Below, in pieces: positions 13,760-54,120 of a stretch of DNA of 64,000 nt; within the stretch, counting starts at the first letter, position 1, and each line of letters begins with the position of its first letter. Location: NCBI GenBank assembly GCA_031425615.1, contig JANPJR010000030.1:18492-82491 (forward strand), read 5' to 3'. The position numbers and the translations under genes were made by a program. Under the pieces are notes generated by a model that saw only the letters and a program-made list of their open reading frames with translations, was not told the origin of the DNA and did not search any database. This DNA is from Cytophagales bacterium (GTDB lineage: Bacteria > Bacteroidota > Bacteroidia > Cytophagales > Microscillaceae).

Positions 13760-14917
13760 ATGCAAGCAGACATTTTAGAAAATCGCCAAGAAATCATTGA
13801 TGGTATCGCAGAAAGTACCAAAGATTTTGCAGAAAAACACATTCTTCCTTATGTCATGGAATGGGACGAATCACAAGCCTTTCCCGTAGAAACATTTAGA
13901 AAAATGGGGGAAATGGGACTTATGGGTATGATTGTGCCTACCGAATATGGCGGAAGTGGATTGGGGTATAGAGAATATGTAACAGGCATTGTAGAAATCT
14001 CAAAAATAGACCCTTCTATTGGCTTGTCTATGGCTGCACATAATTCACTTTGCACCAATCATATATTAATGTTTGGCAATGAAAGCCAAAAACAAAATTA
14101 TCTTCCAAAACTTGCTTCTGGCGAATGGATAGGTGCATGGGGACTTACTGAGCCAAATACAGGCTCTGATGCAGGCAATATGCGTACTGTCGCAGTAAAA
14201 GATGGCGAATATTGGATAATAAACGGAGCAAAAAATTTTATTACACATGGTAAATCAGGCAATGTAGCGGTGGTGATTGTGCGTACAGGCGAAGTAGGCG
14301 ATTCACATGGCATGACTGCTTTTATCATTGAAAAAGGTACAAAAGGTTTTACAAGTGGCAGAAAAGAAAATAAACTTGGTATGCGTGCTTCTGAAACTGC
14401 GGAATTGATTTTCCAAGATTGTCGCATACATGAAAGCCAAATGTTGGGCAAAGTAGGCGAAGGTTTTATACAATCTATGAAAATCCTTGATGGCGGGCGT
14501 ATTTCTATCGCAGCATTATCATTGGGTATTGCAAAAGGTGCCTACAATCATGCTTTGCAATATGCCAAAGAAAGACATCAATTTAATCAACCTATTGCCA
14601 AATTCCAAGCGATTGGTTTCAAATTGGCAGACATGGCTACTGAAATAGATGCGTCTGAATTGCTTATTTTGCGTGCTTGCGACCTTAAAGATGCCCACAA
14701 ACCTGTAACAAAAGAATCTGCTATGGCAAAATATTTTGCTTCTGAGGTTTGTGTAAGAGTTGCCAACGAAGCAGTACAGATATTTGGTGGTTATGGTTTT
14801 ACAAAGGATTTCCCAGTAGAAAAATATTATCGTGATTGCAAACTTTGTACGATTGGTGAAGGTACTTCTGAAATCCAAAAACTTGTAATTTCAAGAGATA
14901 TTTTAAAAAATAATTAG
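13760..14917 (+). CDS. Acyl-CoA dehydrogenase (short/butyryl-CoA type), paralog 1
   Basis: Full-length ACAD with GLMGMIVPTEYGGSG, FIIEKGTKGF, the catalytic-base region YRDCKLCTIGEGTSEIQKLVISR, and a FAD-binding pattern. About 60% similar to the 30503..31642 product. Confidence 0.9.
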   Translation: MQADILENRQEIIDGIAESTKDFAEKHILPYVMEWDESQAFPVETFRKMGEMGLMGMIVPTEYGGSGLGYREYVTGIVEISKIDPSIGLSMAAHNSLCTNHILMFGNESQKQNYLPKLASGEWIGAWGLTEPNTGSDAGNMRTVAVKDGEYWIINGAKNFITHGKSGNVAVVIVRTGEVGDSHGMTAFIIEKGTKGFTSGRKENKLGMRASETAELIFQDCRIHESQMLGKVGEGFIQSMKILDGGRISIAALSLGIAKGAYNHALQYAKERHQFNQPIAKFQAIGFKLADMATEIDASELLILRACDLKDAHKPVTKESAMAKYFASEVCVRVANEAVQIFGGYGFTKDFPVEKYYRDCKLCTIGEGTSEIQKLVISRDILKNN

Positions 14918-16376: not shown

Positions 16377-16514
16377 TTTTCAAGTAGTAGTTATAATAGT
16401 GGTGATGGCGTGTTTTTTAGTTGTACATGTTTCGGTTGTTAGTTTTTCCAGTTGTTAGTTTCTTTTATTAATCATTAAATACTGATTTACTGAAAAAATT
16501 TATTACTAATCTTT

Positions 16515-17069
16515 TTAATCTAAGAAATCGCTTGCTTTATAATTCGCTTTGATGTATTCGTCCAGTTCTTTTTTGCATTTATATTTTTTTGTTTTAGCAG
16601 TATCTGCGTTGGCAAATCCAAGTTTTTCTGCAATTTCTTGCATGGAATAATTATCAAAATAATAATACATGAGGACTTTTTTGCAGGTTTCTCCCAAACT
16701 ATTAAGGCATTTGGCTATAATATTATCACGTTCTTCTTTTTCAAAATCGTTGTATTCCCTTCCTTCCACCATTTCGCCTGATATTTTACTTTTGCGTTCC
16801 AATTCTTTACGCCATAGGTTTTGACATACGCTATATACGAATGTACTTATTTTGGAAGTAAGTACAAAGTCATCACGTCTTGCTTTTTGCCAAAAAATAA
16901 CAATAGCTTCTTGGTAGATGTCTTGTGCTTCTTCTTCTGTACCATTATTTTTGACAATCATTCTTGTCATCATTTTATAGTTTTTTTTATACAGATAATC
17001 CAAAACACTCTCATCTCCATTTTTTATCTTTTGGATAAGTTGGCTATCGCTCGGAGAGAAAAGACCCAT
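16515..17069 (-). CDS. RNA polymerase ECF-type sigma-70 factor
   Basis: Region 2 (DIYQEAIVIFWQKARRDDF...VYSVCQNLWRKEL) and region 4 HTH (LMYYYFDNYSMQEIAEKLGFANADTAKTKKYKCKKEL). Confidence 0.85.
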   Translation of the reverse strand: MGLFSPSDSQLIQKIKNGDESVLDYLYKKNYKMMTRMIVKNNGTEEEAQDIYQEAIVIFWQKARRDDFVLTSKISTFVYSVCQNLWRKELERKSKISGEMVEGREYNDFEKEERDNIIAKCLNSLGETCKKVLMYYYFDNYSMQEIAEKLGFANADTAKTKKYKCKKELDEYIKANYKASDFLD

Positions 17070-17527: not shown

Positions 17528-18502
17528 GTGTTCTTCTTTAAATTTACAAAAAAATTAGTACAAAAATCCAGTAAAAAAGTAAAAACTTTGATAAAAAAAC
17601 CAACATATAAATACATTTCAACCGCTTGGTGGTACAAAAACCTCACACTCATCATACGTGATAGCACTACGTTGGAAGAAATACGCCAAATTACTTATAC
17701 ACCTTTCATTGTACTATTGATTGGAATTGGGTTGTCATTGCCTGTATTTATGGTGGGATTTTGGATTGCAAGTTTTGTGTATAGCCCCAAAAGTGTAATT
17801 GGAAAAGATGAAACTACCCGAAAACTCGTTGAAATGAACCTTACGATTGATTCTTTGGCACAAGATTTAAAAAAGAAAAATGATTTTATCATAAATTTAC
17901 AAAAATTGCTTTCAGGTGATGTTGCACACATGAAAGACGCACAAGGACAGGAAAAAAATGACCCAAAAGACACCTCAAAACATAACCACAACCACGCACA
18001 TCTCAAAAAACCTAATAAAGATTCTGTGAATATTGATAAAATTTCTGCCTCTGACCAAAAACTTAGACAAGAAATAGAAAAAAACGACAGAAGTTTGGCA
18101 GGAATTGGCGGAGTAAGTAATATTGATTTGCAAAATATTTTCCTGTTTAATCCACTCAAAGGACTTATTACAGAAAAATATAACCCAAAAGATAAACATT
18201 TTGGTGTGGATATCGTAGCAGAAAAAGATGCACCTATAAAATCAGTAAATGAAGGAACGGTTATCATGGCTTCTTGGACTGATGATACGGGCTATGTAAT
18301 GATGATTCAACACGCCTCTAAGTTAATTTCAGTATATAAACATTGTTCTGTACTCCTCAAAAAAGCAGGCGATTTTGTGCAAACAGGCGAAATAATCGCT
18401 ATTATTGGCAACACAGGTGCTTTGACTTCAGGGCCACATTTGCATTTTGAACTTTGGTATGAAGGCACCGCCTTAAATCCAGAAAAAATGATAAGTTTTT
18501 AA
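17528..18502 (+). CDS. M23-family (LytM-type) metallopeptidase with N-terminal TM anchor
   Basis: C-terminal HFGVDIVAEKDAPIKSVNEGTV...GNTGALTSGPHLHFELWYEG (HxxxD and HLH zinc motifs of M23). The start is a GTG in the track ORF and is uncertain. Confidence 0.8.
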   Translation: MFFFKFTKKLVQKSSKKVKTLIKKPTYKYISTAWWYKNLTLIIRDSTTLEEIRQITYTPFIVLLIGIGLSLPVFMVGFWIASFVYSPKSVIGKDETTRKLVEMNLTIDSLAQDLKKKNDFIINLQKLLSGDVAHMKDAQGQEKNDPKDTSKHNHNHAHLKKPNKDSVNIDKISASDQKLRQEIEKNDRSLAGIGGVSNIDLQNIFLFNPLKGLITEKYNPKDKHFGVDIVAEKDAPIKSVNEGTVIMASWTDDTGYVMMIQHASKLISVYKHCSVLLKKAGDFVQTGEIIAIIGNTGALTSGPHLHFELWYEGTALNPEKMISF

Positions 18503-18580
18503 GTTAGGTTTTTTCAGTTAATTCAGTAATACGTTTTTTAATTTAAAAATAAATACCCAAATAATATAAATAATACAGCT

Positions 18581-19104: not shown

Positions 19105-19176
19105 TTATTTAAAATACCTACAATAACCTTTAACTGGAAAAATTGACAACTGAATTAACTGACAACTTTTCATTTT

Positions 19177-21315
19177 TTAATTCTTCAAAATTGTAACTTC
19201 CACCCTGCGATTTGCTTGGCGACCTTCTTCAGTAGTATTGACAGCAGAAGGCTTGTCCATACCATAACCTTTGGCAGAAATTCTATCTTTGGCAATGCCT
19301 TTTTGACCCAAATAATTTACTACTGCTTGCGCTCTACTTTGTGATAACAACGTGTTTGCTTGTGCTGTGCCTATATTATCAGTATGCCCACCAACTTCTA
19401 TATTCATGTTTGGATTTTCGGTAAGCACCTTTACAAGCCTGTCCAAGTCCCCAAAAGATTCATTGCGGAGGGTTGCCTTTGAAAAATCAAAAAATACATT
19501 ATTCAAACGAATTATTTGCCCTGTTTCAATAGGTGAAAGATATAAATTGCGTGTAATTTCTTTGTATTCTGTTATTTTAGTAACATCAATATTTTCACTT
19601 ACTGAAATAAATTCATTTTTCTGTGCCAAAAAACCATAAAATTCTCCTGCGGGCAATACAATTTTATAACTACCATCAGTAGGGTTAGAAGTAGCAATAC
19701 CAAGTTCTTTGTTCGCTTTTAGGGCGTTGTATGTGATATTGGCAGACATAGGTTGCTTTGTTTTGCTGTTAAATACTTTGCCTGAAATCAATACCACAGG
19801 TTTTGGTTTGAGGTTTTGGGTAAGTTTTATGCGTATAATATCAAGACTACCACTTAAATCGTTGGTCATATAAGCATAATTACCAGAAGCAGGGAGGGTA
19901 AAATATGCGTCCCAACCATTTGAATTAATACCTTGCCCTAAGTTTTGTGGCTCAGACCAATTTGTCCAAGTGTCATCAAGCCTTCTTGTTACAAATATAT
20001 CATTGCTTCCATAACCAGGAAACCCTGAAGACGCATAATACAATGTAACACCATCTGCTGCGAGAAAAGGCGTATCTTCATTTTCAACGCTGTTGATTAC
20101 TTTGCCCATGCTTTTGGGTTTGCTCCATTTGTTATTGCCCAAATTGAATGTTACGAACATGTCTTTTCCACCAATACATTCATCACGCAATACCGTCATA
20201 ATAATAACTTTTCTGTCAGCAGACAAGCAAAATTCATTTGTGCCACCTTTTGACACAAAATCTTCTATTTCTATTTTTTGGGGCACTTCCCAACCGTCTT
20301 TTGTGCGGTGTGTAATAGAAAATCCTCCTCCATTTGGCGAGCCATCAGGTTTGTAACTATTTCCTACCAAGAGTGTATTATGGTCAGGTGTTGAAGAAAT
20401 CACAAAATTTGCTTGGTCATTGTTGAGTGGTTTTCCCATATTTTTCTTTTCTGTCCAAGTTTGACCATTGTCATTGGATTCGCTATAAAATATTTCGCCC
20501 CCATCTTTTTCACCACCTGTATTTTCAGGGCTATTGTGTATGCAATAATACAATGTTTTACCATCAGGCGTGATATAAGGCGAAGTTTCTGCATATTTTG
20601 TATTTACCTTATTACCCAAATTTTCTTTGGCAAGATTAGTAGGTGCGTTTGGCACTAAGTTTATTTTTACATCTTCATAAAACTTAAAATTATCAATTTC
20701 TAATTTTTGGGCATTAGAAGTAAAAAAACCATACGTACCTGTAAAATCTTTTGGATTATTGCCTGTATATATTTCTTTATCGTTGATTTTTACAATAATT
20801 TTATCAGGTTTTATATTTACCCAAAGTTTGTTGGTTTCATTAAAATTTTTCTTGATAATGTCATCATGTATTTTTTTTTCTGTCAAATCGCCAAATTTAC
20901 CTTTGTAGTAGCGTATTTCAAAATCTGACGTTTTGGGTATTATTTTAAAAAAATACGTTTTATTGTCTTTTCCACTTACAGAAAATCCATGCGACAACAC
21001 ATCTTTTGCACCTTCCAACAGTTTAAACTCCACTTCAAATATAATTTCTTTGTCATGGTTTGTAAAAATACTTTTTTTTGCCCAAAAGAAATTATCCGCA
21101 GCAGCATGATTGGTAATATAATATTTACCTTCCGAATAAGCATAATCCACTTCTTCGCCTTTTTCTACCCTAAAACCAGACGCAGGATTTGAAAAATCAT
21201 CACTTACCCAAAGTGGAATTTTTTGGGCAAAAATAGGTGGAATAGCTAAAATAACTATTTGAATAAGGAAAAACAGCACAAAAAATGCAACTGTAAATTT
21301 GTTGGTTTTATTCAT
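19177..21315 (-). CDS. OmpA-family outer-membrane protein with PD40/TolB-like beta-propeller repeats and a CarboxypepD_reg-like domain
   Basis: C-terminal OmpA domain (NVFFDFSKATL...EVGGHTDNIGTAQANTLLSQSRAQAV...NRRVEV). The middle has PD40-type repeats (TPDGKTLYY, AADGVTLYYAS). ISGKVFNSKTKQPMSANITY resembles a carboxypeptidase regulatory domain. Signal peptide. Confidence 0.8.
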   Translation of the reverse strand: MNKTNKFTVAFFVLFFLIQIVILAIPPIFAQKIPLWVSDDFSNPASGFRVEKGEEVDYAYSEGKYYITNHAAADNFFWAKKSIFTNHDKEIIFEVEFKLLEGAKDVLSHGFSVSGKDNKTYFFKIIPKTSDFEIRYYKGKFGDLTEKKIHDDIIKKNFNETNKLWVNIKPDKIIVKINDKEIYTGNNPKDFTGTYGFFTSNAQKLEIDNFKFYEDVKINLVPNAPTNLAKENLGNKVNTKYAETSPYITPDGKTLYYCIHNSPENTGGEKDGGEIFYSESNDNGQTWTEKKNMGKPLNNDQANFVISSTPDHNTLLVGNSYKPDGSPNGGGFSITHRTKDGWEVPQKIEIEDFVSKGGTNEFCLSADRKVIIMTVLRDECIGGKDMFVTFNLGNNKWSKPKSMGKVINSVENEDTPFLAADGVTLYYASSGFPGYGSNDIFVTRRLDDTWTNWSEPQNLGQGINSNGWDAYFTLPASGNYAYMTNDLSGSLDIIRIKLTQNLKPKPVVLISGKVFNSKTKQPMSANITYNALKANKELGIATSNPTDGSYKIVLPAGEFYGFLAQKNEFISVSENIDVTKITEYKEITRNLYLSPIETGQIIRLNNVFFDFSKATLRNESFGDLDRLVKVLTENPNMNIEVGGHTDNIGTAQANTLLSQSRAQAVVNYLGQKGIAKDRISAKGYGMDKPSAVNTTEEGRQANRRVEVTILKN

Positions 21316-30359: not shown

Positions 30360-30502
30360 TTTGATTAAAATTAGTCCCAGCCCCCAAAGGGACAAAAGGT
30401 AGTAAAAAAAAAGTAAATAGTTGTCAGTAATCAGTTTTTTCCCAGTAAAATACAAAACTAAAAAAAACTGAAAAAACTGACAACTGAAAAAACTAAAAAA
30501 CC

Positions 30503-31642
30503 CTATTTTAACAAATCTCTTGCAATAACGATTTTTTGAATTTCGGAAGTGCCTTCATAGATTTGGGTAATTTTGGCATCACGCATCATACGTTCCACAT
30601 GAAACTCTTTCACATAACCATAACCACCATGCACTTGTACCGCTTCGGTTGTAACGTCCATTGCTACTTGTGAAGCAAATAATTTGCATTGTGCAGCAGC
30701 AGATACATAATCTTGGTGTGCATCTTTGAGTTTGGCAGCGTGTAATGTAAGCAACCTCGCACAATTAATATGCGTAAGCATATCTGCAAGTTTAAATTGA
30801 ATGGCTTGGTGTTCAGAGATAGGTTTTCCAAATGCTTTGCGTTCTTTGGAATACTTTACAGAAAGCTCGTAAGCACCAGACGCAATACCTAACGCTTGTG
30901 CAGCAATGCCAATACGACCACCATTGAGGGTTTCCATCGCAAATTTAAACCCAAAACCATCACCGCCAATACGGTTTGTTTTTGGTACTTTTACATCTGT
31001 AAACATCAGCGAATGTGTATCAGAGCTTCTAATACCCATTTTATCTTCTTTTTTTCCCACTACAAATCCCTCTGTACCTTTCTCCACAATCAGCACATTG
31101 ATACCTTTGTGTTTGAGTTCAGGATAAGTTTGTGCAATCACAAGATAAATAGAGGCATTTCCACCATTGGTTATCCAGTTTTTTGTGCCATTTAGGAGGT
31201 AATAATCGCCTTTATCTTCTGCGATTGTTTTTTGGGAAGTTGCATCAGAGCCTGCCTCTGGCTCAGAAAGACAAAACGCACCCAATACATCTCCTTTTGC
31301 AAGTGGTACAAGATATTTACGTTTTTGTTCTTCATTGCCATATTTTTCCAATCCCCAGCACACTAAGGAATTATTGACTGACATTGCCACCGCAGCAGAC
31401 GCATCTACTTTGGCTATTTCCTCTAATGCCAACACATAGGATACGGTGTCCATGCCACTTCCACCATATTCGGTAGGCACCATCATACCCATAAAGCCCA
31501 ATTCTGCCATTTTTTTGATAGAACTGAAAGGGAATTTTGCTTCGTTATCACGTTCAATAATCCCTTCCCAAAGATTATTTTGGGCAAAATCACGTGCTGC
31601 ATCACGCACAGCTATTTGTTCTTCTGTAAGAAAATCCGTCAT
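30503..31642 (-). CDS. Acyl-CoA dehydrogenase (short/butyryl-CoA type), paralog 2
   Basis: MGMMVPTEYGGSGMD, LIVEKGTEGF, MRDAKITQIYEGTSEIQKIVIAR. A paralog of 13760..14917. Confidence 0.9.
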   Translation of the reverse strand: MTDFLTEEQIAVRDAARDFAQNNLWEGIIERDNEAKFPFSSIKKMAELGFMGMMVPTEYGGSGMDTVSYVLALEEIAKVDASAAVAMSVNNSLVCWGLEKYGNEEQKRKYLVPLAKGDVLGAFCLSEPEAGSDATSQKTIAEDKGDYYLLNGTKNWITNGGNASIYLVIAQTYPELKHKGINVLIVEKGTEGFVVGKKEDKMGIRSSDTHSLMFTDVKVPKTNRIGGDGFGFKFAMETLNGGRIGIAAQALGIASGAYELSVKYSKERKAFGKPISEHQAIQFKLADMLTHINCARLLTLHAAKLKDAHQDYVSAAAQCKLFASQVAMDVTTEAVQVHGGYGYVKEFHVERMMRDAKITQIYEGTSEIQKIVIARDLLK

Positions 31643-31940
31643 CTTTTTTGTTTTTTTATAATTTTATGACAAAAATAACCATTTTTTGAGAGAAAAAAAA
31701 CTTTGGTATTTTGCAACAAACCAACCTTGTATTAAAATTGAGAAGGGCTAAATGAAAATATAAATTTTTAACCCTAAAATTTATTATTACATGATTTTAC
31801 TTGAAAATATACGTAACATACTTTTCCATAGTGAAGGGGTTACAAACACTTCACTATGGAAAAAATAGAATTTTTCACATATTTTTACCAAATAAAATTA
31901 CTTGGTACCAAAAACTTGGTACCAAAACTGACAACTTGGA

Positions 31941-32516
31941 TTAAATATGTTTATCTAAAATAGCAGAAATATTCCCAAAAATTTCATGTATTGTGCCAAT
32001 GCCTGATATAGATTCAAATTTATTTTGTGCTTGGTAATAATTGGCAACAGGGCGCGTTTTTGTTTCATATTCTTGCACACGTTGGCGTACAAGGTCTTCG
32101 TTTTGGTCGTCAGCCCTGCCTGATGTTTCGCCACGTTTGAGTATGCGTGTAGTCAATTCTTCATTATTTACTTCCAATGCAATCATGACCGAAATACTCA
32201 TATTACGTTGTTTGAGCATATTATCCAACGCTTGTGCTTGTACTTGTGTGCGTGGAAATCCATCAAAAATAAATCCTGTACTTTCAGGGTGTGCGTCTAT
32301 TTTGTTGGAAACCATGCCAATAAGCACATCATCAGGCACGAGATTACCTGCATTCATAAACCTTTTTGCTTCCAAACCAAGTTGCGTTTCTTGTGCAACT
32401 TCTGCTCTGAGTAGGTCGCCTGTAGATATTTGAATGAGTCCGTATTTTTTTACGATATTTTCGCTTTGCGTACCTTTTCCTGCGCCAGGAGGTCCAAATA
32501 AAACCAAATTTAGCAT
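31941..32516 (-). CDS. adk: Adenylate kinase (short type, no long LID insertion)
   Basis: P-loop LFGPPGAGKGTQ, the ISTGDLLRAEV NMP-binding region, and FDGFPRT. 191 aa. Confidence 0.9.
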   Translation of the reverse strand: MLNLVLFGPPGAGKGTQSENIVKKYGLIQISTGDLLRAEVAQETQLGLEAKRFMNAGNLVPDDVLIGMVSNKIDAHPESTGFIFDGFPRTQVQAQALDNMLKQRNMSISVMIALEVNNEELTTRILKRGETSGRADDQNEDLVRQRVQEYETKTRPVANYYQAQNKFESISGIGTIHEIFGNISAILDKHI

Positions 32517-32749
32517 ATTTTTATTTTTTTAAATCCTTTTTTATACACCCCAAACTTGAAAGTTATGTTGGTATATATATGGGGTTTGTTTTATGAGAAA
32601 AATTTTTTATACCAAAGATGGTATTTTTTTTTAAAACTACAAAAAGAAAAATAAATTAAGTTATCAGTAACCTGTTTTTTTTAAGTTAATCCAAGTTGTT
32701 TATTATATTTTTTTTCAAAACTTACAACTAAAAAACTGGTAATTTTTAG

Positions 32750-33322
32750 TTATTCTGCTTCCAACACATTTACAATATTTTCAAAAACTTTTTCAGGTTC
32801 AGGCAATCCATCTATTTCAAAAAATTTACTTTGTTGTTTATAAAATTTTGATACTGTTTGTGTTTCATGATTATAAAGTCTGATGCGACCTTTGATAATG
32901 ATTTCGTTTTGGTCATCAATGCGGTTGTTAGTTTTGCCTCTTTTTAGTATGCGTTTTACGAGTTCTTCATCTGGCACTTGTAATGACAATACATGTGTTA
33001 TTTCAATATTTTGGGTACTAAATATTTTTTCCAACGTATTTAATTGTGTTTGATTACGTGGAAAACCATCAAAAATAAAGCCATTGCTTGCACTATTGGC
33101 AACAATCATATTCTCAATCATTTTAAAAATAATATCATCAGAAACCATTTTTCCCATTGCCAATGTATCTTTTATTTGTATGCCAATATGTGTTTGTTGG
33201 CTGATTTCTTTACGCAACAAATCGCCTGTAGAAATCTGTATAAGTCCATATTTTCCTATTAATTTCTCGCCTTGTGTGCCTTTTCCAGAGCCTGGCGCAC
33301 CAAATAAAATAATGTTTTTCAT
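32750..33322 (-). CDS. Adenylate kinase paralog (second tandem copy, short type)
   Basis: ATG at 33322 (MKNIILFGAPGSGKGTQ). The track ORF starts at a GTG at 33355. ISTGDLLRKEI, FDGFPRN. About 45% identical to the upstream adk. Confidence 0.85.
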   Translation of the reverse strand: MKNIILFGAPGSGKGTQGEKLIGKYGLIQISTGDLLRKEISQQTHIGIQIKDTLAMGKMVSDDIIFKMIENMIVANSASNGFIFDGFPRNQTQLNTLEKIFSTQNIEITHVLSLQVPDEELVKRILKRGKTNNRIDDQNEIIIKGRIRLYNHETQTVSKFYKQQSKFFEIDGLPEPEKVFENIVNVLEAE

Positions 33323-33582: not shown

Positions 33583-35949
33583 ATGTTCAGTTCTACAAAA
33601 AAACTCTTTTTATGCCTGTTGTTCCTATGTATAGGTGCACCAGCATTTGCCCAAGTATTGCGTTTGGGGCTTGTTAATAGTAATTATGCAGGTACAAACG
33701 GTTTGCATTTCAATCCTGCAAGCATCGCAGACAATCGTTACAGATTTTACATGGAAATCTTAAACGCTGGTTTTACTGCAAATAATAACCGTTATATTTT
33801 TGAAACAAAAAACAACTTTGAAGAGTGGAATGTGAAAGGCGATAGAGGCAAAGGCAGTTTGGGAAATGTTGGAGCCAATTTTAATATTCCTGTCATTAAT
33901 TTGATGTTTAAGGTTTCGCCAAAAGCATATTTTGGGCTTACAACACGCACACGCACCTATTTGAATGTGAATGGCATGTCCGAAAATTTTTTTAAATTAT
34001 TAAAAGAAGAAGGAAAATTTGCTAATTTTGATACCAATGCTAATTATTCTGGGAGTACAGGCAATGTTAATTTTAATAGTTGGCTTGAAATTGGAGTAAC
34101 TTATGGGCGTGAATTATTAAAAAAAGACAATCATTTTCTCAAAATTGGCGGTACTGTGAAATATCTCATGGGTGCAGGAAGTGCCAACTATACCCTCAAA
34201 AAATTGGATTACAGCATTGTTACACAAGCCACACAAAACGGTGGCACAGAGAAAGTAATGCGTATCAACAACATAGAAGGTAATATTTCGTATAGTAACA
34301 AGGGCGATTTTGAAGCATCTTCTGATATATTGGGCAATTCACAAGGCAGTGGCGTTGGCATTGATTTAGGAGCAGTATATGAATATCGCCCAAATCCTGA
34401 GAAATACACGTACAAAATGGACAACGAAATGCACGAAGACCGCAGAATGAACAAATACAAATATCGTTTGTCTGCTTCACTCATGGATTTAGGGTTTATT
34501 CGTTACAATACAGGCAATTCCCGTTCTTATAATACCAATATCCAAAATCGTATCCTTACACAATCTGACATTGAAAACGCACAAGACCCTGACAAAGTGA
34601 TAAGTGCATTGGGTATTTCTGCTAATGACTTTCAAAGTAAATATAATGCAGGTTTGCCTACTTCTTTGAATTTGAGTGCAGATTACAATTTTTATAAATA
34701 CTTGTTTCTCAATGCAACTTATATTCAAAACCTTAAAGGGAAATTCGCAAGAAGTGCAAGACAACAAACCGTTTTTGCCCTTACGCCACGTTTTGAGCGT
34801 AGTATGTTTGAGATTGCAATGCCTATCGTCCTATCCAATAATTTGAGTTCTTTGGATTTGGGATTGATGATTCGTTTGGATTTCTTTTATATTGGTTCTG
34901 ATAATCTTTCTGTATTATATAATCCTTCACGTGTGAGAGGTGTAGATTTTTATACAGGAATTTCTGTACCTATTCGTAGAGTAAAACGTCCTCGTGATAG
35001 AGATGGTGATGAAATATCAGATGGAATAGACCTTTGTAAAACAGAAAAAGGCACTTGGGAACTCAAAGGTTGCCCTGACCAAGATGGCGATGGCATTACT
35101 GACAAAGACGATAATTGCCCAACCGAAGCAGGGAAAGCAGAGTTTAAAGGTTGTCCTGACCAAGACAATGATGGTGTGATGGACAAAGAAGATGATTGCC
35201 CTACAATTGCAGGAAAACCTGAATTAAAAGGTTGCCCTGACACGGATAATGATGGCATCATGGACAAAGAAGACGATTGTCCAAGTGAAGCGGGCAAAAA
35301 AGAATTTAAAGGTTGTCCTGACACGGATAATGATGGCATCATGGACAAAGAGGACGAATGTCCAACAGTTGCAGGTATTGCACAATTCAAAGGTTGCCCT
35401 GATACTGATGGTGATGGCATCAAAGACAGCGAAGACGATTGCCCTACCATCGCAGGAAAACCCGAACTAAAAGGTTGCCCTGACAAAGATAATGATGGTG
35501 TAGCAGACAAAGACGACCAATGCCCTGATGTAGCAGGTTTGAAAGAGCTGAAAGGTTGCCCTGAAACCAAAAATAGCGAGCCTATTCTTACCGCAGAAGA
35601 AAAAGAAACCTTGAAAGAAGCTTTTGAAAATCTTGAATTTGAAACAGGCAAAGCAATTATTGCCCAAAAATCACTTTCAAGCCTCAAAGAACTCGCTGAA
35701 GTATTGAAAAAACGTGATAAATATAAACTGGAAATATCTGGACATACTGATAATCAAGGCATTGCAAATGCAAACCTCGCACTTAGCAAGCAACGAGCTG
35801 AAGCGGTAAAAGCATTTTTGGTAAAAGAAAAAATCCCTGCAAATAGACTCATAGCACAAGGTTTTGGACAAACTAAACCTGTTGCAGATAATAAAACTGC
35901 AGAAGGCAGACAGAAAAATCGTAGGGTAGAAATGAAAGTGATTAAGTAA
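33583..35949 (+). CDS. OmpA-family protein with N-terminal beta-barrel-like domain and thrombospondin type-3 (Ca-binding) repeats
   Basis: Signal peptide. Six to seven 27-aa repeats KGCPDxDxDGxxDKxDxCPT.AG with the DxDxDGxxD Ca-binding signature. C-terminal OmpA domain (ISGHTDNQGIANANLALSKQRAEAV...NRRVEM). Confidence 0.85.
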   Translation: MFSSTKKLFLCLLFLCIGAPAFAQVLRLGLVNSNYAGTNGLHFNPASIADNRYRFYMEILNAGFTANNNRYIFETKNNFEEWNVKGDRGKGSLGNVGANFNIPVINLMFKVSPKAYFGLTTRTRTYLNVNGMSENFFKLLKEEGKFANFDTNANYSGSTGNVNFNSWLEIGVTYGRELLKKDNHFLKIGGTVKYLMGAGSANYTLKKLDYSIVTQATQNGGTEKVMRINNIEGNISYSNKGDFEASSDILGNSQGSGVGIDLGAVYEYRPNPEKYTYKMDNEMHEDRRMNKYKYRLSASLMDLGFIRYNTGNSRSYNTNIQNRILTQSDIENAQDPDKVISALGISANDFQSKYNAGLPTSLNLSADYNFYKYLFLNATYIQNLKGKFARSARQQTVFALTPRFERSMFEIAMPIVLSNNLSSLDLGLMIRLDFFYIGSDNLSVLYNPSRVRGVDFYTGISVPIRRVKRPRDRDGDEISDGIDLCKTEKGTWELKGCPDQDGDGITDKDDNCPTEAGKAEFKGCPDQDNDGVMDKEDDCPTIAGKPELKGCPDTDNDGIMDKEDDCPSEAGKKEFKGCPDTDNDGIMDKEDECPTVAGIAQFKGCPDTDGDGIKDSEDDCPTIAGKPELKGCPDKDNDGVADKDDQCPDVAGLKELKGCPETKNSEPILTAEEKETLKEAFENLEFETGKAIIAQKSLSSLKELAEVLKKRDKYKLEISGHTDNQGIANANLALSKQRAEAVKAFLVKEKIPANRLIAQGFGQTKPVADNKTAEGRQKNRRVEMKVIK
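35066..35568 (+). repeat. 81-bp tandem repeats (about 6 copies) encoding the TSP3 repeats
   Basis: The DNA unit aaaggttgccctgac...ga(a/t)tt recurs in phase at 81-bp spacing. Confidence 0.8.
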
Positions 35950-36009
35950 AAATTAACCTTTTCAGTTGTCAGTTTTTAGTTATTTTTAAAATTTATAAAA
36001 AAATAACAC

Positions 36010-36057: not shown

Positions 36058-36120
36058 CTAAAAAAATAGTTTTAAAACGAAAAAAATAGTTTCTAACTGA
36101 AAAAACTGATTACTGAAAAA

Positions 36121-37011
36121 TTATTTTCTAAATCTCTCCGCCACTACAAGCGTTTTACTGCCTGCAACATATTCATAAAAACCTTTCCCTGTTTTTACGC
36201 CCAAATGTCCAGCTTCTACCATATTAACCAAAAGCGGACAAGGGGCATATTTTTGATTGCCTAAACCATTATATAACACTTTTAAAATATTCAAACATAC
36301 GTCCAAACCCACAAAATCAGCTAATTGAAGTGGTCCCATAGGGTGTGCCATGCCAAGTTTCATGACAGTATCTATTTCTTCTACGCCAGCAACGCCCTCA
36401 AAAAGTGTGTAAAAAGCCTCGTTGAGCATAGGCATCAAGATACGATTAGACACAAAACCAGGATAATCATTTACCACAACAGGCACTTTACCAAGTTGCA
36501 CAGAAAGGTCAAAAATTTGTTGGGAGATGGCTTTATCTGTGGCATAACCATTAATAATTTCCACAAGTTTCATTACAGGCACAGGGTTAAAAAAGTGCAT
36601 ACCAACTACCTGCGTTGGACGTGTGGTAGCTGAGGCTATTTTAGTGATAGAAATAGACGAAGTATTGCTTGCCAAAATTGCATTTTTTGGTGCAAAAGCA
36701 TCTAATTGTTTAAAAATTTGAAGTTTTAAATCAATGTTTTCAGTGGCTGCTTCTACAATTAAATCTGCTTTTTCAACGCCTTTTTGCAAATCCGTAAAAG
36801 TAGTAATATTGTTTAATGTTTGCGTTTTGTGTTCTTCTGTAAGCGTACCTTTTGTAATTTGTCGGTCAAGGTTGCCTGCAATGGTTTTAAGGGCTTTTTC
36901 AAGACTTTCAACCTTAATATCAACCAATGATACCAAAAAACCATTTTGTGCAAATAAATGTGCAATACCATTGCCCATTGTACCTGAGCCTATTACAGTG
37001 ATGTTTTTCAT
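36121..37011 (-). CDS. hbd: 3-hydroxybutyryl-CoA / 3-hydroxyacyl-CoA dehydrogenase (NAD-binding)
   Basis: N-terminal ITVIGSGTMGNGIAH Rossmann motif. 3HCDH C-terminal domain. 296 aa, typical of Hbd. Confidence 0.9.
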   Translation of the reverse strand: MKNITVIGSGTMGNGIAHLFAQNGFLVSLVDIKVESLEKALKTIAGNLDRQITKGTLTEEHKTQTLNNITTFTDLQKGVEKADLIVEAATENIDLKLQIFKQLDAFAPKNAILASNTSSISITKIASATTRPTQVVGMHFFNPVPVMKLVEIINGYATDKAISQQIFDLSVQLGKVPVVVNDYPGFVSNRILMPMLNEAFYTLFEGVAGVEEIDTVMKLGMAHPMGPLQLADFVGLDVCLNILKVLYNGLGNQKYAPCPLLVNMVEAGHLGVKTGKGFYEYVAGSKTLVVAERFRK

Positions 37012-39898: not shown

Positions 39899-40129
39899 AG
39901 TGTTTTTTTGGTTTTTGAAGTAAATAGATTGTCAAAATCTTAAATTACCAAAATTGAAAAGATTAAAATAAAGAAATAGGAATAAACGAAGTTATCAGCG
40001 GTTAGTTTTATAAATTTAATTTATGTTTTAAGTTTTAAACTTATAAAACTGTGCCATGTATTATATTTTTTGATAATAAATTTCCAAAAACTTATAACTT
40101 GATACTGATAATTTGGATTAAACTACATT

Positions 40130-41125
40130 TTATCTACGCAAACGTGGATGACGACGTGTAGTAAGGATATAGTTCAAATGAATACCCGTTACCAAGTAAA
40201 AATCATTCAACTGTTTTCCTTGTGAGCCACGTACAGAGCCTGGTTCTCTACCATCAAGCAGAGGATATACGATACCATTACTATCAGTCCAAGTTGAAAG
40301 TGTACCTAATTTTGTTTCCAAAAAAGCCAAATCACGTGTGTTGCCTGAGAATACATTGGTAGGTTCTGCTGTGCGGTTTGACATTCTGCGTGCAAGTTCG
40401 GAATCCAAATCTTTCAAATCAGGATAATTGCCACCCACATCATCAATGTGGTCAGTTGTAAGAATACGTCCTCCAACTTCAGCAGATATATCCCATTTGT
40501 CAGTCAAACGGAAACGTACACCAATACCAATAGGGAATGCCAACTGAAAATTAGAATACATTTTTGCATAACCTTCTTTTCCTTGACCTTCTGTACCCAA
40601 TGGGCGTAAAGCTACCCAACCACCACCCATACTTTCAGGTGCTTTTGCTTTTGGATTGTGGTAAAAACCAGCAACACCTCCAAATATGTATGGATTCCAA
40701 TATGCGCGACGATAAAAACGGTTTGGGTTTTTAAACAATTCATATTGTCCAACTACTGCAAGTTCAATAATATCATTGCGAAAATGCAAATTACGTCCAT
40801 AACGTCCTACACTTGATGGAGAATCAGGGCTTGCAGAAGTATTATCGTTGCCTACCAATCGTCCATAATTCAAACTTGCTCGCACATACCAATGTTGTGT
40901 CATTTTGCGGGCAATTTGTATACCAAAGTTTGGACGTGTATGGTCAAGTTTCGTAGAAACGAATTGTTTTAATGGATTCAAATCACCGAAATAATTGAAA
41001 GCATTGATTTGTGCACCAACTGACCAGTATTTTTCGGTGCGTTGGCTTGGCGGTGTTCTTTGTGCTGTTGCAATAGAAGCAAAAAAAAGAGATAAAACCG
41101 CAGTGAGTAGTAAGTGTTTTTTCAT
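40130..41125 (-). CDS. Hypothetical outer-membrane beta-barrel protein
   Basis: ATG at 41125 (MKKHLLLTAVLSLFFASIATAQ signal peptide). Alternating hydrophobic beta-strand pattern. C-terminal residues basic. Confidence 0.5.
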   Translation of the reverse strand: MKKHLLLTAVLSLFFASIATAQRTPPSQRTEKYWSVGAQINAFNYFGDLNPLKQFVSTKLDHTRPNFGIQIARKMTQHWYVRASLNYGRLVGNDNTSASPDSPSSVGRYGRNLHFRNDIIELAVVGQYELFKNPNRFYRRAYWNPYIFGGVAGFYHNPKAKAPESMGGGWVALRPLGTEGQGKEGYAKMYSNFQLAFPIGIGVRFRLTDKWDISAEVGGRILTTDHIDDVGGNYPDLKDLDSELARRMSNRTAEPTNVFSGNTRDLAFLETKLGTLSTWTDSNGIVYPLLDGREPGSVRGSQGKQLNDFYLVTGIHLNYILTTRRHPRLRR

Positions 41126-41665: not shown

Positions 41666-42007
41666 ATGAATGTAAAAGATTTCTTAAATGCACAACAAAA
41701 AAACATAGATGATCTGCTTACACAAGAGATGTCGCTGTTGATATTGGGTTATTTGAGCCAAAAAGATGAAGATTTTAAACAGTTTTTAGATTTTTTTTGG
41801 CAAGAAATTCACAAAAATACAACAGACTTAATCAAAAATGTACTTATACAATTACCAGAATATCAATACCTTGAAGCATATAGTAATGAACTACAAGATA
41901 ATGAGCAATATAATATATTGAAAAAAATCATTGCTGAAGCTGTTCAAATGCGTATTCAAGTGTCTAAATCTGTTGTAGAAGATTGGAGAAAACAAATAAA
42001 TGATTAG
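41666..42007 (+). CDS. Hypothetical small protein (113 aa)
   Basis: ORF with ATG. The stop lies within a 12-bp x3 tandem repeat. No domain recognised. Confidence 0.3.
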   Translation: MNVKDFLNAQQKNIDDLLTQEMSLLILGYLSQKDEDFKQFLDFFWQEIHKNTTDLIKNVLIQLPEYQYLEAYSNELQDNEQYNILKKIIAEAVQMRIQVSKSVVEDWRKQIND

Positions 42008-44355: not shown

Positions 44356-45015
44356 ATGAAAAATATTAGCATAAAAGTTTGTGGTATGCGTGATACCCAA
44401 AATATAATAGATATTGCACAAATACCCAATATTACACATTTAGGGTTTATTTTTACGCCCAAATCACAGCGTTTTGTAGGACATGATTTTGAAATGCCTG
44501 AATTGCCTACACATATTCAAAAAGTAGGTGTTTTCCTTGACCAAAGTTTAGACGAAGTATTGGCAAAATGTGCCAAATATAACCTTGATATGATACAACT
44601 GCATGGCAACGAAAGTCCAGATTATTGTCAATATGCCCAATCGCCCATGATGCAAGGGCGTAGAGGTTTGGAAAAACGCCCAAAAATCATAAAAGCATTT
44701 TCTATAGACGAGTATTTTGATATGAATATTTTGGCAGAATATAGCTTGCATTGCGATTTTTTTCTGCTGGATACAAAAGGCAAAAATGCAGGCGGAAATG
44801 GTGTAACATTTGATTGGGAAATATTAAAAAACCATATTTTTGAACGCCCTATTTTTTTGAGTGGTGGCATTTCCTTAGAAAATATGCAAAAATTGCAAGA
44901 TTTTCTCACAAAAAATCCCCAAATTCCTATTCAATGCTTAGACATTAATAGTAAATTTGAGGATAATATTGCTTTGAAAAATGTGGGGAAAATTAAAGCA
45001 TTTTTGGAATTGTAG
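44356..45015 (+). CDS. trpF: Phosphoribosylanthranilate isomerase (TrpF)
   Basis: IKVCGMRD..., DMIQLHGNES, DFFLLDTKGKNAGGNGVTFDWEIL, FLSGGISLENM match the PRAI TIM-barrel motifs. Confidence 0.8.
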   Translation: MKNISIKVCGMRDTQNIIDIAQIPNITHLGFIFTPKSQRFVGHDFEMPELPTHIQKVGVFLDQSLDEVLAKCAKYNLDMIQLHGNESPDYCQYAQSPMMQGRRGLEKRPKIIKAFSIDEYFDMNILAEYSLHCDFFLLDTKGKNAGGNGVTFDWEILKNHIFERPIFLSGGISLENMQKLQDFLTKNPQIPIQCLDINSKFEDNIALKNVGKIKAFLEL

Positions 45016-45163: not shown

Positions 45164-46726
45164 TTATCTTTTTGGTGCTGATTTTGTTGCTTTATCCACA
45201 AAAATACGTTTTTCACGGTTTGCAATTTCCCAAGCGGTACTAAAAATTAGGCGACCAATTTTTTCCATTTTAGGAAAATGGATTTTTTCTACATCATCAG
45301 TAGGTTGGTGATAATCTTCATGCACACCATTAAAATAAAAAATAATTGGAATATCATTTTTTGCAAAATTGTAATGGTCAGAACGATAATAAAAACGGTT
45401 TGGGTCGTTTTCATCATTATATTTGTAGTCCAGTTTGATATTTTCGGTTTTTTTGTTTACTTCTTCGCTGAGGTTGTGAAGTTCAGTAGAAAGTTTATCA
45501 GAACCAATCAAATACACATAATTAGGATTATTGTCTTTTTGGTATTCTTCGCCAATGCGTCCCACCATATCAATATTCAAATCAACAACCGTATTTTTAA
45601 GTGGGAAAATAGGGTCGTTGTCCGCATAATATTGTGAGCCAAACAAACCAAGTTCTTCACCTGCAACAGTCATAAACAGCATACTTCTGCGAGGGCGTTT
45701 GCCATCTTTGCTTGCTTGTGCAAATGCTTCTGCGAGTTCTAATACAGTAACTGTACCTGAGCCATCATCATCAGCACCATTATACACGATTTTTTTGCCA
45801 TCAATTTCTTTAAAACCTACATGGTCATAGTGCGAAGTAATCACCACAACTTCCTCTTTTTTGTCTGTACCTTCCAAAAAACCAAGTACATTTTCAGAAC
45901 TCCACTCCTCTTTTTCTTTCATGTTGGCTTGGAGTGTGATTTTTTTGGATTTTTTACTAATGTCTTTTGGATTTTTAAATAATGCTTCTTCTTTTACGCC
46001 CAATACTTCTGCGGTATATTTTGGTGAGAAATAAAATGTAACGGTTTCTTTTTTATTAGGATTGCTTAGGCTTTTGAGTGTTCTTTCAAAATAAAAAGCA
46101 TTTTCCTCATAATCCGTATCAAATTCTTCTTGGTTTTTACCAATCGTAATAATGATGGCTTTTGCTCCTTTTTCTCTTGCAGTTTTTGCTTGTTCTTTTT
46201 GGTTTTCGTTTTGCAAAATGATTACTGCTTTATCTTTTACGTCTATTTTTGCCAATTCTTCTTGTGTGGGATTACCCAAAAACAATGTTTGAAATTTTTT
46301 TGCCTTGCGTAGTTCATAAGAAACCCCTTTTACATAAAAATTTTTATCTTTTGTAAAAACTGATTTTTTGCCTTTTTCTGCTTGCACAAATACCTCGTCC
46401 CAACTGCGTTGCATAAGTTGAAATTTTTGCAAATATTCCATACCTTTGCTTGTTTTGACAGGAGGCGTAAGTCCTATTTTTTTGAAATGATTTGCAATGT
46501 ATTCCGCAGCACGTTTTTGACCTGCTGACCCTGTATTGCGTCCTTCCATTTCATCAGAGGCAATAATTGTAAGGTGTTTTTTTAAATCTTCTTGCAAAAT
46601 AGTTTTGGCATATTTGGCAGATTCTTCCGTTTTGATATCTTGTGCAAACACCGAAACAGGCAACAAAAGAGTACCCAACAATAATGATTTTTGTAAGGTT
46701 TTTTGTAGGTTTTTTTGAAAATTCAT
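45164..46726 (-). CDS. M28-family aminopeptidase with PA domain, secreted
   Basis: Signal peptide. HYDHVGF...GADDDGSGTVTVLELAEAF, ...MLFMTVAGEELGLFGSQYY, and ...YHQPTDD are M28 zinc-ligand motifs. Confidence 0.8.
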   Translation of the reverse strand: MNFQKNLQKTLQKSLLLGTLLLPVSVFAQDIKTEESAKYAKTILQEDLKKHLTIIASDEMEGRNTGSAGQKRAAEYIANHFKKIGLTPPVKTSKGMEYLQKFQLMQRSWDEVFVQAEKGKKSVFTKDKNFYVKGVSYELRKAKKFQTLFLGNPTQEELAKIDVKDKAVIILQNENQKEQAKTAREKGAKAIIITIGKNQEEFDTDYEENAFYFERTLKSLSNPNKKETVTFYFSPKYTAEVLGVKEEALFKNPKDISKKSKKITLQANMKEKEEWSSENVLGFLEGTDKKEEVVVITSHYDHVGFKEIDGKKIVYNGADDDGSGTVTVLELAEAFAQASKDGKRPRRSMLFMTVAGEELGLFGSQYYADNDPIFPLKNTVVDLNIDMVGRIGEEYQKDNNPNYVYLIGSDKLSTELHNLSEEVNKKTENIKLDYKYNDENDPNRFYYRSDHYNFAKNDIPIIFYFNGVHEDYHQPTDDVEKIHFPKMEKIGRLIFSTAWEIANREKRIFVDKATKSAPKR

Positions 46727-46943: not shown

Positions 46944-47774
46944 TTAAAAAAACTTAGCCATTTCTTGTTGCCAATATAAAGCACGTTTTTGGGCTAATTG
47001 TGCAAAGTTTTCTTCGTGTGTTGTGCTTTGATTCTCGTGTGTAATTTCTTGTTCAAAAGCAAAAATTATATCTCTTGAAATATTGATTAAAAGCCCTTCT
47101 TCTGCATTTCTACCATATTTTATTACTTCTTCAAGGTTACCACCTTGTGTGCCTACACCTGGAATGAGTAAAAAATGATTTGGAATTATTTTTCTGATAT
47201 TTTCCAATGCTGAGGTTTTTGTAGCACCTATCACAAACATCATATTTTTTTCATTTCCCCATGTAGAAGCGGTTTTTAGCACATTTTCGTATAATTTTTC
47301 ACCATTTTCAAGGGTAAGCATTTGAAAATCCAAAGCAGAATTATTTGAGGTAAGCCCCAAAACAATGGCGTATTTTTGGTCATATTGCAAAAAAGGTGTT
47401 ACCGAATCTTTACCCATATAAGGTGCTATTGTAACTGCATCAAAGTCCATTTTTTCAAAAAAAGCCTTCGCATAACTGTCTGCGGTGTTGCCTATGTCAC
47501 CACGTTTGGCATCAGCAATGATAAAAATATCTTTTGGTATAATGTCAAGCGTTTGTTGCATGGCTTCCCAACCCAATGTACCTTGTGCCTCATAAAAAGC
47601 GGTATTGAGTTTGTAGCTTACTGCTAAATGTTGTGTTGCGTCTATAATGGCTTTATTAAAAGCAAATATTGGATTTTTGTAATTTTTTTTGAGAAAATTA
47701 GGGATTTTGTTTAAATCACTGTCTAACCCAATACACAAGAAGGATTTTTTTTGGCGTATTTGTTCCGTAAGCAT
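46944..47774 (-). CDS. pyrF: Orotidine-5'-phosphate decarboxylase (type 2, long form)
   Basis: IIADAKRGDIGNTADSYAKAFF (the KRGDIGNT hallmark). 276 aa. Confidence 0.9.
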   Translation of the reverse strand: MLTEQIRQKKSFLCIGLDSDLNKIPNFLKKNYKNPIFAFNKAIIDATQHLAVSYKLNTAFYEAQGTLGWEAMQQTLDIIPKDIFIIADAKRGDIGNTADSYAKAFFEKMDFDAVTIAPYMGKDSVTPFLQYDQKYAIVLGLTSNNSALDFQMLTLENGEKLYENVLKTASTWGNEKNMMFVIGATKTSALENIRKIIPNHFLLIPGVGTQGGNLEEVIKYGRNAEEGLLINISRDIIFAFEQEITHENQSTTHEENFAQLAQKRALYWQQEMAKFF

Positions 47775-47780
47775 TTTTTG

Positions 47781-47817: not shown

Positions 47818-47903
47818 ATTGTTAGAAATTTGGTTATTTATATGCGTAAAAATTGATAGATAACTAAAAAAACTGACAACTGAAAAAAACTGACAACTTT
47901 ACA

Positions 47904-54062: not shown

Positions 54063-54120
54063 AAATAGACCGCCAATCACCAAGGGGAATAAACAGCCTT
54101 TAACTGAAAAAACTAACAAC

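Follow-up and report, generated by a model that had tools for sequence, protein, structure and literature searches.

We analyzed a 64,000-nt stretch of DNA from a Cytophagales bacterium (assembly GCA_031425615.1, contig JANPJR010000030.1, positions 18,492 to 82,491; hereafter, the window) for a short motif, CAGTTRTCAGTTTTTT, that recurs between its genes and that the initial annotation had described as a dispersed 3′-end signal. Judged from its sequence, the motif is a member of the known TCAGTNN/NNACTGA family of heptamer simple repeats and not a new signal. The reading that we favor, with a probability of about 0.55, is that a slippage-prone heptamer family has spread through the beginnings of 3′ untranslated regions (3′ UTRs), where direct arrays would be near-inert and inverted pairs would provide the stems of terminators. 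At the flagged site, the spacer that follows gene 30503..31642, the predicted fold indicates that the motif provides the stem in what is otherwise an ordinary intrinsic terminator (hairpin plus U9).

Unit structure and abundance of the motif

The window contained four exact copies of CAGTTRTCAGTTTTTT against 0.00 expected from shuffles, and 16 matches when up to two mismatches were allowed (0.43 expected; shuffle maximum, 3). An unbiased comparison of intergenic and coding 7-mers returned AGTTGTC/GACAACT as the most intergenic-enriched word, with 12 intergenic and no coding occurrences, and all 25 matches to a looser core, AGT[TA][GA]T[CT]A[GA]T, were intergenic in a window that is 83% coding.

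The repeat unit is 7 nt long, CAGT-NN-T, and occurs in the window as CAGTTGT, CAGTTAT, CAGTAAT, and CAGTTTT. Its two strands read TCAGTNN and NNACTGA, with TCAGT as the core; when the complement strand is read, CAACTGA rather than TAACTGA is the most frequent unit. Usually, two units and two or three extra T make up a super-unit of 16–17 nt, CAGTTRTCAGT(T)5-7. The form CAGTTGTCAGTTTTTT holds three G and two C per 16 nt, the genome having a G+C content of 32%, and most arrays are 16–67 nt long. In-register runs of two to four heptamer units were present at 8643-8675 and 61220-61252. The motif of the initial annotation is real, but it is properly described as a 7-nt repeat that has a super-period of 16–17 nt. 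Three features place the arrays in the family described by MacGregor (2015; PMC4679880): a 7-mer with the TCAGT core, at least two head-to-tail copies, and an intergenic, codon-adjacent, and patchy distribution.

All 14 regions that had been listed contained the motif, intact or degenerate, and we found one further site, 18503-18539. The copies at 16440-16510, 32660-32750, and 39985-40129 were degenerate, and 31900-31940 consisted of one copy and an unrelated GGTACCAAG hairpin. A gathering-threshold search of the whole window against Rfam matched no family to the motif, the sole pass being a tRNA, and E-value searches at two motif sites gave just sub-threshold matches to generic hairpins (miRNA precursors).

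Position and orientation relative to genes

Orientation was counted in the window with a simple model of 53 genes and 60-nt zones after stops and before starts. A sense copy was found within 60 nt after the stop in 10 genes and an antisense copy in one; in the 60 nt before the start, no gene had a copy of either orientation. In gene 54121..55347, the 11th, the first unit is fused to the TAA stop codon, and degenerate copies stand at four more gene ends (16515, 17750, 32750, and 40130). The distance from the stop to the first copy was 4–44 nt for core-pattern matches. In 13 of the 14 regions the motif comes after a stop codon and puts its G/U-rich strand into the mRNA, and orientation tracks the adjacent gene, not the chromosome strand. 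These counts bear out the orientation rule of the initial annotation and its view of the motif as a sense-strand mark of gene 3′ ends, set immediately behind the stop codon.

Antisense copies at 16450, 30419/30426, 32659, and ~39987 were each distal to a sense copy, with which they form an inverted repeat. Both orientations do occur between convergent genes, as had been reported, and they occur between tandem genes as well (16450, 30419/30426, and 32659), the antisense copy being the distal arm of the inverted repeat. The one site set apart as a misfit, 61213-61256, does lie upstream of a start, but it is the other known configuration of the family, that is, "forward, upstream of start" with the A/C-rich strand in sense, as in TAACTGA-type repeats (PMC4679880).

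Folding and termination

The direct arrays were no more structured than shuffles. The array at 12885-12975 had a minimum free energy of −2.2 kcal/mol (z +0.70), and the z values of the others were −1.11 (47850-47925), −0.54, and −0.59. The inverted pair at 30405-30520 on the minus strand reached −28.3 kcal/mol (z −5.1), and none of 200 shuffles was as stable. Its hairpin, 30419-30485, is followed on the gene strand by AUUUAC and then by a U-run (U8/9; 30404-30412); sense copies that follow the stop of gene 30503..31642 make up the 5′ arm, 30462-30501, and inverted copies the 3′ arm, 30418-30440. A second inverted pair, 8643-8744 (folded as 8625-8760, plus strand), had −26.8 kcal/mol and is followed by U5. 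Only these two pairs, 30419-30485 (U9) and 8643-8744 (U5), combine a stable hairpin with a U-tract in the way of an intrinsic terminator; the direct arrays do not. In the inverted pairs, the T-runs of the units themselves lie toward the loop and do not follow the stem.

Canonical hairpin terminators had been held to be rare in the window, and this proved incorrect. At least nine hairpins with a T-run are present (Table 1), and at four gene ends (19177, 31941, 33583, and 36121) the motif has one immediately downstream. Since separate terminators lie 3′ of the arrays at these four gene ends, the direct motif is probably the start of the 3′ UTR there and not the terminator. A terminator role is thus upheld for inverted pairs, including the flagged site, but not for direct arrays, and arrays should be annotated as terminators just when they are inverted.

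Absence from relatives and breaks in assemblies

The closest homologues pointed to Cytophagales, Microscillaceae being among the named matches, and not to a Flavobacterium. Two relatives were sampled over 66 kb in total: 26.5 kb of GCA_013297825.1 (L121 and L128) and 39.5 kb of GCA_013298075.1 (L122 and L125). The core pattern had no intergenic match in these 66 kb (six matches, all inside genes) versus 25 in the window, and the gene ends of both relatives carry ordinary hairpin terminators. In the orthologous flagged spacer from L121, where the acyl-CoA dehydrogenase is 96% identical, the alignment kept the U-run (T9 vs. T8) and the downstream block CCCTTTGGGGGCTGGG but not the stem, and in the same place stands an unrelated AT-rich hairpin, CAATGTTCAAA...TTTGAACATTG. 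A kept U-run with a replaced stem suggests that the motif supplies the terminator stem at the flagged site. A single heptamer family that keeps one orientation, occupies about one quarter of gene 3′ ends, and is missing from relatives makes the window a clean case.

Window positions 47869-54113 are matched at 100% identity by a public short-read contig (L124), both ends of which lie inside motif arrays, as would happen with a sequence present in many copies per genome. Exact-protein look-ups gave just short Logan contigs ending in repeats, or no match. Heptamer arrays break short-read assemblies.

The same heptamer in other genomes

One genome per species was scanned for two copies of AGTTGTCAGT 0–25 nt apart, which gave at least 120 stretches. 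We read each of the 128 arrays among the matches listed as (AGTTGTC)n and took the longest open reading frame (ORF) on each side as the flanking gene; such gene calls are crude, chiefly in G+C-rich genomes, but cannot produce a left–right asymmetry. Nearly all of the matches listed were 24, 31, 38, or 45 nt long, which places the two copies in a 7-nt register, and they formed tandem arrays of 4 to 34 units. In-register (AGTTGTC)n arrays were found in at least 16 phylum-level groups, led among the matches listed by Acidobacteriota (at least 38 loci), Cyanobacteria (at least 21), Planctomycetota (at least 20), and Bacteroidota (at least 13). The proposal of a genus-specific signal accordingly holds for abundance, which is lineage-specific, but not for the sequence (see also PMC4679880).

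Among these listed matches, the 5′ (left) end of the G/T-rich strand was within 15 nt of a coding sequence (CDS) boundary in 56 of the 128 arrays, and the right end in 11. Of the 56 left-end boundaries, 29 were the stop of a gene in the same orientation and 27 the start of a gene on the opposite strand. The stop was often fused to the first unit (T-AGTTGTC, TG-AGTTGTC), starts were often 0–10 nt away, and G/U-rich arrays just ahead of a start codon were almost absent across phyla. An inverted partner within 150 nt was located downstream of 33 arrays and upstream of two. The proteins encoded downstream of start-adjacent arrays in other phyla were ordinary housekeeping proteins.

In about 14 of the listed arrays from other phyla, a gene that enters from the A/C-rich side ends at the array's own TGA, 1–23 nt inside the array, which shows that arrays can supply the stop codon of a neighbor gene. 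A metagenome scan with AGTWRTCAGTTTTTTCAGT gave 74 stretches, none of them from the window's lineage; about 20 lay in heptamer arrays, and most matches were single, chance-like, and within coding DNA of unrelated genomes. The unrelated metagenome contig JAAUYJ010184428.1 (L199) has 10 core matches in 1.7 kb, and at 280-368 the 19-mer AGTTRTCAGTTTTTTCAGT recurs in a ~70-nt repeat (TTTTCAGTTGTCAGTTTTTTCAGTTTTTTTT ATGATGCAAAATAAGATTTCAGCAATCTCAT...); the heptamer may thus be embedded in longer repeat units elsewhere.

Origin and possible roles of the arrays

We propose that the heptamer repeat would have colonized the first 5–50 nt after stop codons, where the mRNA would carry the G/U-rich strand of its arrays, either at the beginning of the 3′ UTR or in the spacer between cistrons. 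A direct array alone would form an unstructured tract and cause no termination, and a second array inverted downstream would create a long hairpin that, together with a U-run, would act as an ordinary intrinsic terminator. The arrays probably arise and grow by replication slippage. Selection on the transcript would keep the orientation, the G/U-rich strand being tolerated after stops and just the A/C-rich strand before starts, and any function of direct arrays themselves would be weak.

Several observations weigh against this proposal or fall outside it. Slippage alone cannot explain one unit at 15 or more unlinked sites when relatives lack it. The period of seven is left unexplained, and the window also has (ATTATGA)5.7, (GGAATTA)3.9, and (AATTAGG)2.6 at CDS boundaries. 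When non-consensus units were counted among the matches listed, leaving out those forced by the search pattern, the AGT positions mismatched in 20–23% of units and the next three positions in 36–40%; a CAGT core that is about 1.7 times better conserved hints at sequence-specific selection, for example by a binding factor. Finally, no recognizable hairpin terminator lies downstream of the arrays at 12896-12962, 47862-47899, 48575-48611, and 18503-18539, so that these could have a role in termination or processing. The first three have no hairpin before the next co-oriented gene and may simply be intercistronic.

The points on unlinked sites, the period of seven, and core conservation give the main support to another reading, one that we consider unlikely but worth weighing: that the arrays form a platform for a patchily distributed single-strand nucleic-acid-binding protein reading TCAGT in the 7-nt register. 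Binding in the 3′ UTR would protect or regulate the mRNA, and binding in the 5′ UTR, in the other orientation, would control translation. Cold-shock domains cover 6–7 nt and HutP reads NAG-N4 repeats, so that both offer models for the putative binder. Unstructured arrays are accessible RNA, they touch start and stop codons, and a patchy distribution of the factor would explain why a unit found in at least 16 phylum-level groups is absent from close relatives. S1-, Csp-, or CsrA-like proteins have been proposed as binders (PMC4679880), and a heptamer partner was inferred in a Nostoc preprint (10.1101/2022.06.06.494920). However, no candidate protein emerged and none is encoded beside the arrays among the neighbors scanned, the flanking genes have no functional theme, and the unrelated heptamers ATTATGA, GGAATTA, and AATTAGG also lie at CDS boundaries in the window, as GGGAATC repeats do under the same rule elsewhere (PMC4692102). 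Several heptamer families with one rule point to the 7-nt period rather than to one sequence-specific factor. The bolder version, in which TCAGTNN arrays are the cis-sites of an unrecognized, horizontally mobile protein of this kind that marks CDS boundaries in at least 16 phyla through G/U-rich copies behind stops and A/C-rich copies ahead of starts, strikes us as quite improbable; if true, it would mean a post-transcriptional layer that is present in some genomes and missing from their close relatives.

We are very doubtful that CAGTTRTCAGTTTTTT itself is a hairpin-independent signal for termination or 3′ processing, acting through a pause and U-tract or through RNase E-type AG/UU sites, even though it stands in sense orientation immediately after stops, has a U-run in every super-unit, lacks a downstream hairpin at several arrays, and occurs where relatives have canonical terminators. 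The separate strong terminators 3′ of the array at four gene ends mean that such a signal is not needed there, the U-runs are loop-side in the inverted pairs and not past the stem, short arrays with more G than C are poor Rho loading sites, and among the matches listed arrays of the same family in other phyla have no T-run. Multisubunit RNA polymerases of bacteria are not known to terminate at sequences of this type unless a hairpin or Rho takes part. There is only a slim chance that the arrays are DNA-level elements such as an uptake sequence, a site at which a nucleoid or roadblock protein binds, or a REP/MITE-like trace or target of a mobile element. The inverted pairs here look like the pairs of uptake sequences known from Neisseria terminators, and the patchy distribution looks as if the repeat had spread horizontally. 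The positional rule, moreover, can be stated on DNA alone, the G/T-rich 5′ end abutting the CDS whichever its direction (PMC4692102). Yet we saw no terminal inverted repeats, target-site duplications, palindromic unit, or nearby transposase or RAYT-like gene; none of the 25 copies is coding, unlike uptake sequences; and orientation follows the adjacent gene, not the chromosome strand.

Several specific candidates were tried and rejected. A REP/MITE mobile repeat is contradicted by a unit that is not self-complementary, by single arrays that remain unfolded, and by the lack of a transposase among the neighbors scanned, and a DNA uptake sequence by the absence of all 25 copies from the 83% of the window that is coding. 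Rho utilization (rut) sites need C-rich, G-poor unstructured RNA of ~70 nt or more; the arrays have more G than C and are mostly 16–67 nt long. The elemental pause consensus G-10 Y-1 G+1 is matched, by inspection, by pure (CAGTTGT)n but not by the 16-nt super-unit or by GGGAATC repeats. Back-up stop codons were dismissed because sense CAGTTGT is stop-free in all frames, its complement alone giving TGA in three frames.

Sites, neighboring genes, and other repeats

The sites are given in Table 1. The genes adjoining the arrays have unrelated functions; among them are those for adenylate kinases, acyl-CoA and 3-hydroxyacyl-CoA dehydrogenases, OmpA-family proteins, an ECF sigma factor, a nucleoside transporter, and a SpoIIE-type phosphatase. 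We found no RNA-binding or transposase gene beside the arrays among the neighbor genes scanned. The adenylate kinases are tandem paralogues on the minus strand, 31941-32516 and 32750-33322, of 191 and 190 aa, with full ADK domains; they lie 233 nt apart, and each is followed by a motif copy.

Table 1. Motif arrays, terminators, and other repeats of the window
Feature	Position	Strand	Context
Heptamer units AAGTTAT CAGTTGT CAGTAGC AAGTAAT CAGTTTTT ("three units")	8643..8675	+	4 nt after stop of 7668..8639; 5′ arm of inverted pair
Three 16-nt super-units	8697..8744	-	After stop of 8745..9263; pair with 8643-8675 into long hairpin
Period 16 nt, 2.4 copies (Tandem Repeats Finder)	8697-8734
Direct array, 4.2 copies of 16-nt super-unit	12896..12962	-	Begins 8 nt after stop of 12958..13338; unstructured
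Period 16 nt, 4.2 copies (Tandem Repeats Finder)	12896-12962
Degenerate antisense copies GGTTGTTAGTTTTTC CAGTTGTTAGTTTCTT	16433..16466	+	Distal arm, weak inverted pair
Degenerate sense copies TTAGTAATAAATTTTTTCAGTAAATCAGTATTT	16477..16509	-	After stop of 16515..17069
Degenerate sense copies GTTAGGTTTTTTCAGTTAATTCAGTAATACGTTTTTT	18503..18539	+	Directly after stop of 17750..18502; absent from initial list
Two units	19137..19168	-	9 nt after stop of 19177..21315; separate bidirectional terminator 19065-19106 downstream
Flagged-site hairpin	30419..30485	-	Arms are heptamer arrays; stop of 30503..31642 upstream
U9 tract	30404..30412	-	6 nt after flagged-site hairpin
One unit TCCAAGTTGTCAGTTTT	31927..31940	-	1 nt after stop of 31941..32516; then separate hairpin 31901-31926 and T-rich tail
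Antisense copy AAGTTATCAGTAACCTGTTTTTTTT	32658..32682	+	Distal arm, inverted pair
Degenerate sense copy ACCAGTTTTTTAGTTGTAAGTTTT	32717..32740	-	After stop of 32750..33322
Sense copy	35963..35985	+	14 nt after stop of 33583..35949; upstream of bidirectional terminator 36011-36056
Sense copy	36090..36116	-	6 nt after stop of 36121..37011; opposite side of terminator 36011-36056
Degenerate antisense copy GAAGTTATCAGCGGTTAGTTTT	39987..40008	+	Distal arm, inverted pair
Degenerate sense copies AAATTATCAGTATCAAGTTATAAGTTTTT	40086..40114	-	After stop of 40130..41125
Direct array, 2.2 copies of 17-nt super-unit	47862..47899	-	5 nt after stop of 47904..48509; unstructured; public short-read contig breaks inside
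Period 17 nt, 2.2 copies (Tandem Repeats Finder)	47862-47898
Sense copies AAGTTATCAGTTTTTTCAGTAATTTATTTTTTCAGTC	48575..48611	-	44 nt after stop of 48655..49968, beyond a GC mini-hairpin
Sense copy, first unit fused to TAA stop (T-AAGTTGTTAGTTTTTTCAGTT)	54100..54122	-	Gene 54121..55347; public short-read contig breaks inside
4.6 heptamer units; plus strand reads (ACTGACA)n	61216..61253	-	41–65 nt upstream of class II aminoacyl-tRNA synthetase start (61294/61318..62817)
Period 7 nt, 4.6 copies (Tandem Repeats Finder)	61220-61252
Canonical terminator	After gene at 4190
Canonical terminator	10976-11007
Canonical terminator	15241-15287
Canonical terminator	19065-19106		Separate; gene 19177..21315, array 19137-19168
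Canonical terminator	~23925-23955
Canonical terminator	31901-31926		Separate; gene 31941..32516, array 31927-31940
Canonical terminator	36011-36056		Perfect 21-bp hairpin, shared by gene 33583..35949 (array 35963-35985) and gene 36121..37011 (array 36090-36116)
Canonical terminator	37999-38031
Canonical terminator	57825-57859
(ATTATGA) x5.7, perfect	45016-45055	+	Directly after stop of 44356..45015
ATTATGG/ATTATAG/GTTATAA	45130-45163	-	After convergent gene 45164..46726
GTTATGA ATTATAG ATTATAA	10188-10215	+	After stop of 9378..10187
(GGAATTA) x3.9, perfect	47780-47806	+	Immediately upstream of start of 46944..47774(-)
(AATTAGG) x2.6	14912-14929	+	Overlapping stop of 13760..14917
12-mer TAAATGATTAGT x3.1	41997-42033	+	Overlapping stop of 41666..42007; T-run at end
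GC mini-hairpin	2576-2588	-
GC mini-hairpin	30325-30395
GC mini-hairpin	42163-42175	-
GC mini-hairpin	48627-48639	-
GC mini-hairpin	62834-62845	+
GC mini-hairpin	62900-62912	-
81-nt (27-codon) coding tandem repeat	35065-35525	+	5.4 copies, 75% identity; in OmpA-family gene 33583..35949

Units of the ATTATGA type, a second heptamer family found directly behind stops, carry TGA, TAG, or TAA in the sense strand, so that three units give a stop in every frame. The GC mini-hairpin, CC(C)AAAGGGG(G)AA, often followed by TAA, had 19 matches with up to one mismatch against 5.7 expected, mostly just after stops; unlike the heptamer arrays, it is shared with L121 (9337-9365 and 9455-9480; CCCCCGAAGGGGG, CCCCCTTTGGGGGCTGGGG). 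The word AAACAGCC/GGCTGTTT forms the arms of the 21-bp hairpin at 36011-36056 and recurs in intergenic DNA at 46896-46903, 54091-54098, and 57253-57260, a count that is not above chance (5 vs. 2.9 expected). The 27-codon repeat is Asp/Gly-rich (CPDxDGDGxxDxxDxCP-like) and appears to resemble thrombospondin-type-3-like calcium-binding repeats.

Comparison with known systems

Many bacterial genomes have an excess of heptameric simple repeats, and what these do has been a question since 1990. The closest known system is the TAACTGA direct repeats found by MacGregor (2015) in marine Beggiatoaceae, 15 cyanobacteria, and five Bacteroidetes (PMC4679880). In the sulfur bacterium these stand mostly just upstream of starts with the A/C-rich strand in the mRNA, and in Flexibacter litoralis one reverse-oriented set lies right after a stop codon. 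Close relatives lack the repeats, indels come in 7-nt steps, contigs end in repeats, and S1, cold-shock (Csp), or CsrA-like proteins were suggested as binders (PMC4679880). The reverse complement of TAACTGA, TCAGTTA, corresponds in a rotated register to the AGTTATC variant of the window, and both sets are tandem, intergenic, in touch with CDS boundaries, patchy among relatives, and a cause of assembly breaks. The window arrays differ in that 13 of the 14 regions follow stops with the G/U-rich strand in the mRNA and in that their units are doubled with a T-run, the 16–17-nt spacing of paired units being a departure from pure heptamer arrays; the distribution is also far wider now than that reported in 2015.

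Intrinsic terminators likewise stand after genes and end in a U-run, and the inverted pairs at 30419-30485 and 8643-8744 are such stable hairpins with a U-run; in contrast, direct arrays have no hairpin, the T-runs of their units are loop-side, and several have separate terminators on their 3′ side. The REP and BIME elements of enterobacteria are also short dispersed repeats that lie in 3′ UTRs or between operon genes, often alternate in orientation, and form hairpins. REP units, however, are imperfect palindromes of ~35 nt mobilized by RAYT transposases, whereas the window unit is a non-palindromic tandem 7-mer and no RAYT was seen among the neighbors scanned. HutP binds NAG-N4-NAG-N4-NAG and TRAP binds GAG/UAG repeats, both in the 5′ leaders of single Bacillus operons; CAG-N4-CAG-N4 shares the 7-nt register, short core, and fixed spacer of the HutP site and may be likened to it by analogy only; no HutP or TRAP homologue was found here, no search aimed at one having been made. 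The classical STRR units CCCCART, TTGGTCA, and CAACAGT have sequences other than those of the window. STRR heptamers of Calothrix PCC 7601 are cited as ref. 39 in PMC4692102. Such heptamers are reported from cyanobacteria alone, usually as long pure arrays, and no 3′-end rule is known to have been described for them. In Nostoc PCC 7120, csR1.1 (ttgtcagttgtcagttgtca, 44 times; PMC2408588) is exactly (AGTTGTC)n and consists, like the window motif, of intergenic tandem heptamers with many copies per genome. A Nostoc preprint infers a binding partner for other heptamers near start codons (10.1101/2022.06.06.494920), and a transcriptome paper on Flavobacterium psychrophilum does not mention such a motif.

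Rehm et al. (2015) described GGGAATC/GGGGAYT heptamers of Xanthomonas and Nostoc that lie near the 5′ neighboring ORF. Those that follow a stop are on the coding strand, those that precede a start are on the non-coding strand, and the flanking genes have no functional theme; the authors also cite the idea that slippage of DNA polymerase favors heptamers (PMC4692102). These repeats share with ours the 7-nt period, the positional rule, the inverted pairs, and the unrelated flanking genes. They differ in forming G-quadruplexes, which the window motif cannot form, and in having positions conserved across two Xanthomonas species, whereas the relatives here lack the arrays. One unit that occurs in at least 16 phylum-level groups and obeys the positional rule of an unrelated heptamer argues for a common cause, and this makes the matter a testable question.

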